Shown here: piece after piece, positions 25,641 through 26,130 of the stretch
How positions within the stretch are numbered: the stretch's first letter is position 1
Layout of the letters: the number at the start of each line of letters is the position of its first letter
DNA from: Myxococcales bacterium
GTDB taxonomy: Bacteria > Myxococcota_A > UBA9160 > SMWR01
Direction of reading: 5' to 3'
Assembly (NCBI GenBank): GCA_022561775.1
Contig: JADFQO010000002.1
Span: 45,725-109,724, forward strand
Length of the DNA: 64,000 bases
Translations under genes and position numbers: made by a program
Notes under the pieces: model-generated
Told to the model about the DNA's origin: nothing
Database searches by the model: none
Seen by the model: the letters and a program-made list of their open reading frames with translations, nothing else

Positions 25641-26130
25641 AATTCTGAGTCGAAAAGGGAAGCGCCCGAAGGACGGTCCGCACGTCGGAGCCTTCCGTCG
25701 GACGCCTGCTCTGTAGCCAGATCACGACTCGTTCGAGGCTACACGTCAATCCTAGTCGATCGTGGCTACGCGTGGAATTGTGAGGCGAAGCGCCCGAAGG
25801 CCGGCCAGGGAAATCAGAAAGACCTGAAGCAGCCCTCGGGCGCCCGCTCGAAGACCGCGGATTCCTGAAAGCTCCGCGGCTCGATTCGGCCCGTACATTG
25901 AAACGGGCCGCCCGCGCTAGCGGGGTGAAGAACCTAGCCGATTGTGGCTGCACTGTGACGGGGAATTCTGAGGCAAAGCGCCCGAAGGCTGTGTCCTGCA
26001 GGGCCGGGGAAGGCCTGGAACCCTCGGGCGCCGACTCCGTAGACCGCGGGATCATGGGTTCCGCGGCTCCACGCCGATTCTAGCCGGTCTGGGTGATTCG
26101 TCCTACACCACAGAGTAGGTGGTTTCCCGA
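25641..26130 (+). repeat. three tandem degenerate hairpin-rich units (135, 188 and ~167 bp); candidate structured ncRNA array
   Basis: Each unit opens with AATT[C/G]TGAG..AAGCGCCCGAAGG (25641, 25776, 25964). Units 2 and 3 close a long stem with CCCTCGGGCGC (25833, 26021) and share a second hairpin, CCGCGG..CCGCGG. Units end with CTAG[T/C]CG.T..TGG. Confidence 0.5.

Follow-up and report, generated by a model that had tools for sequence, protein, structure and literature searches.

The 64,000-nucleotide (nt) stretch of Myxococcales bacterium DNA analysed here, which we call the window and number from its first letter, carries a tandem array of three diverged, hairpin-forming units between positions 25638 and 26092, inside an integrative island and beside a DUF3800 gene. 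The original prediction for this locus, made from the sequence alone, had described the units as a candidate array of structured RNAs read on the plus strand, with an implied link to the DUF3800 gene; its description is correct, whereas the strand and the gene link are wrong. We find that the units belong to a structured non-coding family that is real, conserved and outside Rfam, that they fold on the minus strand, and that the family has its home just downstream of a small, co-directional DUF6494 gene. The family is new to description and so far consists of units from uncultured Myxococcota and metagenome contigs.

The sequence elements reported for the array on the plus strand were all found. 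The AATT of what had been called the 5' box begins at 25641, 25776 and 25964, and the 13-mer AAGCGCCCGAAGG, allowing at most one mismatch, lies on the plus strand at 25660, 25788 and 25976 and nowhere else in the window, against a chance expectation of 0.20 (three matches were reached in 0 of 100 shuffles). CCCTCGGGCGC is present at 25833 and 26021; CCGCGG..CCGCGG hairpins, both extra hairpins in unit 2 and, in unit 1, the GAAGG..CCTTC and GTAGCC..GGCTAC helices were likewise confirmed. One correction concerns the common 3' end, since the tail of unit 3 is CTAGCCGGTCTGGG, ending in GGG instead of TGG. The three units have a mean column identity of 64% and lengths of 127–177 nt, and Tandem Repeats Finder did not report the array because they are too diverged; unit length and degeneracy also set them apart from CRISPR and iterons, as had been argued. 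The 209-amino-acid (aa) open reading frame that crosses the region on the minus strand (25426..26055) does exist. Its codon-position G+C content is flat (0.68/0.60/0.60), it is not called in a sister strain (L015) and the indels found there are not multiples of three; by these measures the array region is non-coding, as first supposed.

Folded strand and unit anatomy

Four lines of evidence place the fold on the minus strand. Across the 14 pairs at the base of the main hairpin (hairpin B), the minus strand yields 256 Watson-Crick, 65 G·U and 3 A·C cells; without the G·U position fixed by the pattern used to search metagenomes (below), 46 G·U cells still stand against 3 A·C cells. The two positions that the pattern leaves free never hold bases that would give a Watson-Crick pair on the plus strand. 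The minus-strand fold is also the better one in 17 of 23 units (mean 5.3 kcal/mol; Wilcoxon p=0.005, the units not being independent). Finally, a covariance model trained on the reverse complements of 14 units (R1) detects three units and no further copy in the window, each of them on the minus strand with 93.7–102.9 bits; its plus-strand matches there are partial, score 14–19 bits and correspond to the palindromic stem. Because G·U pairs on the minus strand become A·C mismatches on the plus strand, the units are to be read as the reverse complement, and the former 5' box is therefore the 3' arm of the main hairpin plus the tail. The proposed array of structured RNAs thus stands as a conserved hairpin-forming family, but not in its plus-strand orientation.

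Read in this direction, the elements of a unit follow one another as CCCGATC-GGC-TARRAT, a spacer of 6–7 nt, one or more optional extra hairpins (GGCCCG..CGGGCC, in unit 2 and the L075 group), hairpin A (GUAGCC..GGCUAC, in general form GUAG...CUAC, missing from a subgroup and with loops that are mixed or G-rich), GAGUC, the long, G+C-rich hairpin B with arms GGCGCCCGAGGG...CCUUCGGGCGC, and a tail UUYGGCUCAGRAUUCC, after which some arrays have CGGUUUUUCGGAA. In TARRAT the initial T and A are each found in 24 of 24 units and the last T in 22 of 24, with a variable middle; two further units read TAGAAT and TATAAT. This pattern fits that of a -10 hexamer. Hairpin B has a variable top that is mainly unpaired and rich in C and U (C 263, G 145, U 136, A 94); the window shows, for example, UUCCCC and UUUCU/UUUC, and other loci CUCCUU, CCUCC and CCUUCC. 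Two further elements were considered for this scheme. A 'hairpin 0' around the GGCUAGAAU box was dropped, its candidate stems measuring 3–6 base pairs and shifting in register; an outer extension of hairpin B through the TGAGCC box is real in L035:311, L045:2694 and L065:1210 and could not be aligned across the family.

Unit 3 of the window comes first in the proposed RNA direction (25958..26092, minus strand; R1 102.9 bits, E=1.6e-22). Its -10-like box, TAGAAT, lies at plus-strand positions 26077–26082, hairpin A with its CCGCGG stems at 26039–26072 (z -2.1) and hairpin B with the apical loop UUCCCC at 25977–26032 (z -4.2). Unit 2, the longest (25770..25946, minus; 94.4 bits), carries the -10-like TAGGTT at 25931–25936, two extra hairpins at 25890–25925, hairpin A at about 25853–25885 and a hairpin B with U/C-rich apical loops at 25789–25844; its minus-strand fold reaches -92.6 kcal/mol with z -4.9, compared with z -3.1 on the plus strand. 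In unit 1, the last of the three (25638..25764, minus; 93.7 bits), the corresponding positions are 25749–25754 for the -10-like TAGGAT, 25713–25742 for hairpin A (GUAGCC..GGCUAC) and 25661–25706 for a shorter hairpin B, and the minus-strand fold is better than that of the plus strand by 8.6 kcal/mol. On the minus strand this last hairpin B is followed by CUUCCCUUUUCG (site 25675–25663), the most terminator-like end of the array.

Comparison with the sister strain, which was reached as L015/L016 through a 274-aa protein encoded beside the array, bears on whether this fold is maintained. L015 is 93.9% identical to window positions 24137–25989 and then diverges completely, the break falling in a hairpin arm, inside the main hairpin of unit 3; it retains units 1 and 2 and continues past the break with a divergent third unit of its own and, where the window has DUF3800, with a 191-aa gene of unknown function. 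L015 has not conserved the GAATTCTGAG part of the box; in the motif GAATTyTGAG, a deletion in unit 1 spans the TGAG part, and unit 3 lacks the box. Its stems are retained, and its loops are altered in both sequence and length: changes between the two strains affect 29 of 196 stem positions (15%) and 46 of 130 loop positions (35%; Fisher p=2.5e-5), and both strains keep the folds and folding energies.

Across the family, hairpin A has a mean z of -2.6 relative to dinucleotide shuffles (11/14 below -2) and hairpin B one of -3.6 (20/21 below -2). The inner stem of hairpin A differs between units with pairing kept (GCGG/CCGC, CCGG/CCGG, ACG/CGU, CCGCGG/CCGCGG), and pairs in hairpin B run through the classical A-U / G·U / G-C series, for instance pair 128-186 (AU 14, GU 5, GC 3) and pair 133-181 (UG 13, UA 3, CG 3). 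When covariation, which the original prediction had suggested testing, was scored against shuffles, the value over alignable columns was 0.134 compared with 0.110 in shuffles, of which 1 in 500 reached the observed score. Since stems are kept while loops vary, stem and loop change rates differ, and the hairpins fold better than shuffled sequence, selection on the fold is well supported, at a level below the R-scape standard of proof.

A family downstream of DUF6494 genes

Homologous units were found by scanning the JGI metagenome collection with the pattern AGCGCCCGAAGG-N15-45-CCNNCGGGCGCC, which was designed from the parts of the units conserved with L015. The scan returned 64 loci, 14 of which share the hairpin arms and the flanks of the window units and represent about seven further contexts; the other 50 are unrelated (R1 at most 28 bits). 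With R1, 24 units were recognised across 14 loci (about 8 distinct contexts), mostly metagenome contigs; the three related units of the window share a conserved fold and have homologues elsewhere. They measure 112–186 nt and form tandem arrays of 2–4 in L045, L065, L087 and L035, several arrays having a period of 120–135 nt; at least three distinct contexts occur inside single metagenome projects (Ga0114950; SMVB).

Among the unrelated matches was a different family, a 64-nt near-perfect and highly conserved hairpin (AGCGCCCGAAGGUGCCUGC...GCAGCAACCUUCGGGCGCC) present on many contigs (L031, L037, L038, L040, L043, L046, L057, L058, L061, L062, L064, L082, L084 and L085). A separate 45-nt family is found at L032, L059, L060, L076 and L088.

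The home position of the units is 43–47 nt downstream of a small DUF6494 gene (68 aa; Pfam PF20104, E=9.7e-30), on the same strand. The first unit has this distance from the DUF6494 stop in L045, L036 and L120–L128, and in L035 and L087 the gene is reduced to 3' remnants. An independent test came from a homology search with DUF6494 itself: R1 units occupy the same place, on the same strand, beside the closest homologues, with units on 8 contigs for P0187 (96% identity) and three tandem units in L128 for P0211 (87%). These searches added 11 R1 units downstream of DUF6494 genes and showed a conserved order TPR-DUF6494-array. No units lie downstream of the homologues P0223, P0250 and P0241 (about 82–84% identity), and we therefore limit the association to the closest DUF6494 subgroup. 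After home-locus arrays there follows a conserved trailer of more than 150 nt, with a CUCUCUU-GG-AAGAGAG hairpin and, later, a G+C hairpin (L128 3306–3560; L120 3141–3368; L122, L123 and L125; left flanks of L035 and L065); it is absent from the window.

Elsewhere a unit lies downstream of other co-directional genes, encoding DUF4202/HD (L075/L086), a Lys-rich protein (L056) or a zinc-ribbon (L087); the MscS/DUF4202 context near GroEL is one ordinary chromosomal setting. In the window, positions 26093..26140 (minus; GATTCGTCCTACACCACAGAGTAGGTGGTT...) align on visual comparison to the right-hand flanks of L045, L035, L036, L087 and L055, and appear to be a remnant of the spacer between DUF6494 stop and first unit in the home locus. 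We read the window array, from its sequence and surroundings, as a displaced copy carried as cargo by an integrase/AlpA/primase island.

Known RNA families do not account for the units. The Rfam 15 cmscan that the original prediction had proposed was run over 25300–26500 at the gathering threshold and at E<=10 and gave no match to the units, only two chance-level matches outside them, and a scan of the home locus (L128 2600–3750) gave no match. Gathering-level Rfam matches in the whole window are limited to int-alpA and c-di-GMP-I, both away from the units; the latter, a c-di-GMP-I riboswitch aptamer at 48946–49032 (minus; 41.2 bits), exceeds the gathering score. BLAST in distant mode with 25400–26460 matched nothing among plasmids and phages, and the 5' box pattern matched nothing in IMG/VR, where a looser hairpin pattern gave 8 matches that resemble chance in G+C-rich sequence. 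In 185,579 GTDB representative genomes, which do not include the source genome, the box pattern produced no multi-copy locus; the collection gives no per-genome copy number. Its 9 single matches, in unrelated phyla, are chance-like (about 13 expected), most appearing by eye to be short terminator hairpins or apparent coding sequence, and one (L007) having a longer hairpin. Exact-protein look-ups, for which the window proteins are MCH7643378–MCH7643434, led to three near-identical contigs (99.9%).

The island and its other genes

The array lies within an island of about 16 kb flanked by two perfect direct copies of the 20-bp sequence TTGCTGATCAGAGGTCAGGC, at 21495–21514 and 37426–37445. The island encodes an integrase (36065–37258), AlpA (34383–34625) with an int-alpA RNA (34297–34365; Rfam 42.3 bits), and a Prim-Pol/PriCT protein (30045–32282). 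The gene for the 274-aa protein, to the left of the array on the minus strand, is a near-orphan, and with only two homologues (97% and 60% identity) it was given up as a route to related loci. Also inside the island, a 257-nt direct repeat with 85% identity occupies 23042–23298 and 24135–24391; L015 apparently lacks about 2.3 kb, from just left of the 24135–24391 copy to about 21793, which suggests recombination between or near the two copies.

Immediately left of the units, and outside them, is a 58-aa basic zinc-ribbon gene (25435..25611, plus) with a weak Pfam match. This reading frame is conserved in L015 with synonymous changes; with the units read on the minus strand, gene and array are convergent. 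A homologue adjoins units in L087 (57% identity by tblastn), where it is co-directional with them. The zinc-ribbon gene of the window contains box-like sequences, AAAGAGCCCGAAG near its start (25446–25458) and TCGGGACGCTTCTGCC near its end (about 25567–25582; codons S-G-R-F-C), and in L087 (oriented 430–470 and 751–909) a truncated zinc-ribbon 3' end is fused to a unit exactly between CAGAAGCG and CCCGAAGG. The fusion could reflect recombination through box similarity, or a target relationship.

To the right, the DUF3800 gene (26457–27290, plus; Pfam E=3.5e-16) begins beyond a point, window position 26188, at which two independent assemblies carrying this gene (L001 and L002) both start, 96 nt from the array; this fits a break in assembly for which repeats, or differences between strains at the array, would be responsible. 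The gene has a leader of its own, separate from the array (26302..26430, plus), in which a promoter-like site (TTGACT-17-GATACT) is followed by GCCGA, hairpin 1, GCGGCAAG and hairpin 2 (CUACGGCCAUCC-UUCG-GGGUGGCCGUAG). The same layout recurs at L129 (985–1184) and L133 (2890–3025), whose DUF3800 proteins are about 53–54% identical to that of the window, with compensatory changes in both hairpins and, in L133, a U-rich tail after hairpin 2. Rfam, including its DUF3800-I to DUF3800-XI models, has no match to this leader, which from its sequence may be a further DUF3800-associated RNA motif. The position of the array beside DUF3800 is, on the other hand, a coincidence, because no other unit-bearing locus has a DUF3800 gene, L015 keeps units 1 and 2 with the 191-aa gene in its place, and R1 finds nothing near the DUF3800 homologues of L129–L133; the link that had been implied to this gene is accordingly withdrawn.

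Candidate small RNAs and competing explanations

We propose, at slightly less than even odds (a probability of about 0.45), that the units are sibling small RNAs made from the minus strand, which would pair with their targets through the C/U-rich top of hairpin B. The RNA would come from a promoter in each unit, with TARRAT as its -10 element, or from a single long transcript that is processed; an array processed from the DUF6494 transcript is the alternative to promoters of its own. The exposed top could then pair with purine-rich mRNA segments, for example ribosome-binding sites, a mode of action likened to that of the CcsR ('cuckoo') RNAs and of LhrC1-5. A 5-mer of the 16S 3' tail CACCUCCUUUC occurs in 11 of 21 units, compared with a shuffle mean of 6.3 (p about 0.02) and with 1 of 21 on the plus strand; an anti-Shine-Dalgarno reading of the hairpin B tops is suggestive only.

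Several observations weigh against this proposal. The anti-Shine-Dalgarno enrichment is weak: the window array holds just one such 5-mer, in unit 2, against none in units 1 and 3, and a C-rich loop is missing altogether from unit 1. No convincing -35 element was found 16–18 nt upstream of TARRAT, a consensus scan of the home locus in L128 yields neither promoter nor terminator, and the terminator-like tail of the window array is confined to unit 1. Concerning the fold, formal covariation is modest, with 6 pairs in alignable columns changed on both sides, a number that 81 of 500 shuffles reach; bulges in the inner stems, which lie beyond the register of the alignment, limit this formal count. 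The basal stem is nearly invariant, in part because the search pattern required it. Concerning the strand, the subgroup L045:2543, L065:650, L087:1387 and L045:2676 folds better on the plus strand, though by a slight margin; its members have a long top rich in C. Single-stranded DNA tolerates G·T wobble too, so strand asymmetry alone is no proof of RNA; that the units act as RNA rather than as single-stranded DNA, that this RNA is produced and that it works by base pairing we infer from the sequence. Lastly, the window has no DUF6494 gene, and its array could be a silent, decaying copy.

The closest known parallel is provided by CcsR1-4, four homologous hairpin RNAs that share a transcript with a small DUF1127 gene, have C-rich anti-Shine-Dalgarno loops and come from loci that duplicate and rearrange, some copies having lost the small gene (PMC8034643). 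As in the CcsR/'cuckoo' RNAs of Alphaproteobacteria (Rfam ar14, NfeR), hairpin units of about 100 nt with C-rich tops stand in tandem directly 3' of a very small protein gene and are co-directional with it. The units described here differ in belonging to Myxococcota, in adjoining DUF6494 instead of DUF1127 and in having no Rfam match; CcsR RNAs possess two hairpins, each with a CCUCCUCCC anti-Shine-Dalgarno loop, whereas no unit here contains CCUCCUCCC and only hairpin B is C-rich, and co-transcription and RNase E processing are established for CcsR, while the units are known as sequences. LhrC1-5 of Listeria monocytogenes carry UCCC motifs, and their CU-rich loop motifs have been proposed to pair with G-rich ribosome-binding regions (PMC4132741). 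Together with RsaE/RoxS, they resemble the units as multicopy siblings of about 100 nt with CU-rich loops; sequence or structural homology is lacking, the promoters (LisR-dependent) and terminators of LhrC are proven, and the host here is of high G+C content. The units thus belong to neither CcsR nor LhrC, since motif, neighbour gene and models all fail.

The main rival explanation sees in the units a low-copy intergenic mosaic repeat comparable to REP/BIME, RIME or BOX, spread by recombination and serving at most as a stabiliser or terminator of mRNA 3' ends instead of acting in trans. We consider this unlikely, though a good deal less so than the other alternatives. The about 8 contexts, the optional modules (hairpin A missing in some units, extra hairpins in others) and the prevailing location downstream of co-directional genes (DUF6494, DUF4202/HD, Lys-rich, zinc-ribbon) all agree with it, as do the junctions within units, at the end of L015 homology (25989) and in the truncated zinc-ribbon fusion of L087, and the break of two independent assemblies at 26188; a strand preference would be expected as well, the folding being within mRNA. 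Like such repeats, the units are modular imperfect palindromes that occur singly or in tandem, in intergenic positions and at gene 3' ends, with junctions inside; they differ in being longer (112–186 nt), in having apparently far fewer copies and in possessing conserved non-palindromic boxes. A dispersed REP/MITE-like repeat was the outcome that the original prediction had named as refuting it, and the about 8 contexts go part of the way in that direction, but the copy number appears low: there is one array in 64 kb, no multi-copy locus with the box pattern among the representative genomes and only about 8 contexts across the whole JGI metagenome collection. In addition, GGCTARRAT and the non-palindromic GGCUCAGGAUUCC are strongly conserved and accompanied by C-rich tops, features superfluous for a pure stabiliser, and no RAYT (Y1 transposase) or other transposase is found among the neighbour genes examined.

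Transcription of the opposite strand would turn the array into a sponge of the CsrB/RsmY/RsmZ type, in which GGA motifs in loops titrate a CsrA-like protein. Repeated hairpins and GGA tops invite this comparison: plus-strand tops read AAGGAG, AGGAA, GGGGAAGG or UGGAGG and are often looped, the zinc-ribbon gene upstream is co-directional with such a reading in the window, and in one subgroup the plus-strand fold is the better one. We judge it improbable, given that a plus-strand basal stem would contain 2–3 A·C mismatches in nearly every unit (65 vs 3 cells), that 17 of 23 units have the poorer fold on the plus strand, and that in the home locus a plus-strand RNA would run antisense to DUF6494 as well as to the co-directional genes upstream; the strand evidence points the other way, and the motif density is low, at 1–3 GGA motifs per about 130 nt, confined to the plus strand.

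Somewhat less probable still is a role of the hairpins as single-stranded or cruciform DNA, be it as attC-like sites, as an origin for the island's replication or transfer or as binding sites of the zinc-ribbon protein. The array does lie in an island with an integrase and a primase-polymerase, the L015 breakpoint falls in a hairpin arm, a zinc-ribbon gene adjoins units at two unrelated loci, and folded DNA would accommodate the G·T wobble; most homologous units, however, reside in ordinary chromosomal settings without integrase, primase or zinc-ribbon (TPR-DUF6494; MscS/DUF4202 near GroEL), the zinc-ribbon gene is oriented differently relative to the units at its two loci, and homologous recombination between repeats explains the breakpoints equally well.

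That the array might instead be a DUF3800-associated RNA, or a type III antitoxin-like array controlling DUF3800, is hardly credible: it is located 327 nt upstream of the gene, and many unrelated RNA motifs accompany DUF3800 genes (PMC5737381), but the loci compared above lack the association, the strand on which the units fold is not that of the gene, a conserved promoter-proximal leader belongs to the gene itself, and no Rfam DUF3800 model matches even at E<=10. With DUF3800-I to DUF3800-XI (Weinberg et al. 2017) the units share the form of structured non-coding sequence adjoining DUF3800, and differ in their unconserved neighbourhood, their strand and the failure of every model, for which reasons the leader at 26302–26430 is the better DUF3800-linked candidate.

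Type III ToxI-like antitoxin arrays are made of near-identical tandem repeats of about 35–45 nt, upstream of the toxin gene and on the same strand; an array of this kind was rejected here, the units being 127–177 nt long, diverged, on the opposite strand and separated from DUF3800 by its promoter-like site. For each of the sponge, the DNA site and the DUF3800-linked RNA, one or more of these tests gave a contradicting result.

Returning to the sibling small RNAs, a bolder extension, argued by analogy and in our estimation doubtful, is that DUF6494 and its array form an RNA-protein module that arose independently in parallel to CcaF1 (DUF1127)/CcsR. The tiny protein would control maturation or stability of the C-rich small RNAs, and integrative islands would pick up arrays, as in the window, and bring translation-targeting small RNAs to new hosts.

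Removal of the DUF3800 link as a false lead has also located a real DUF3800 leader element next door, and R1 together with the strand assignment makes the family searchable and testable in metatranscriptomes. The copy borne by the island shows such arrays to be mobile between genomic contexts. Provided that the units are expressed, they would constitute a new family of small RNAs in Myxococcota, and would repeat a design, a very small protein gene followed by tandem sibling hairpin RNAs with C-rich tops, that is known from DUF1127/CcsR of Alphaproteobacteria. A second, unrelated example would suggest that this arrangement is a general solution rather than the peculiarity of one lineage, and DUF6494 would gain a testable role as an RNA partner.

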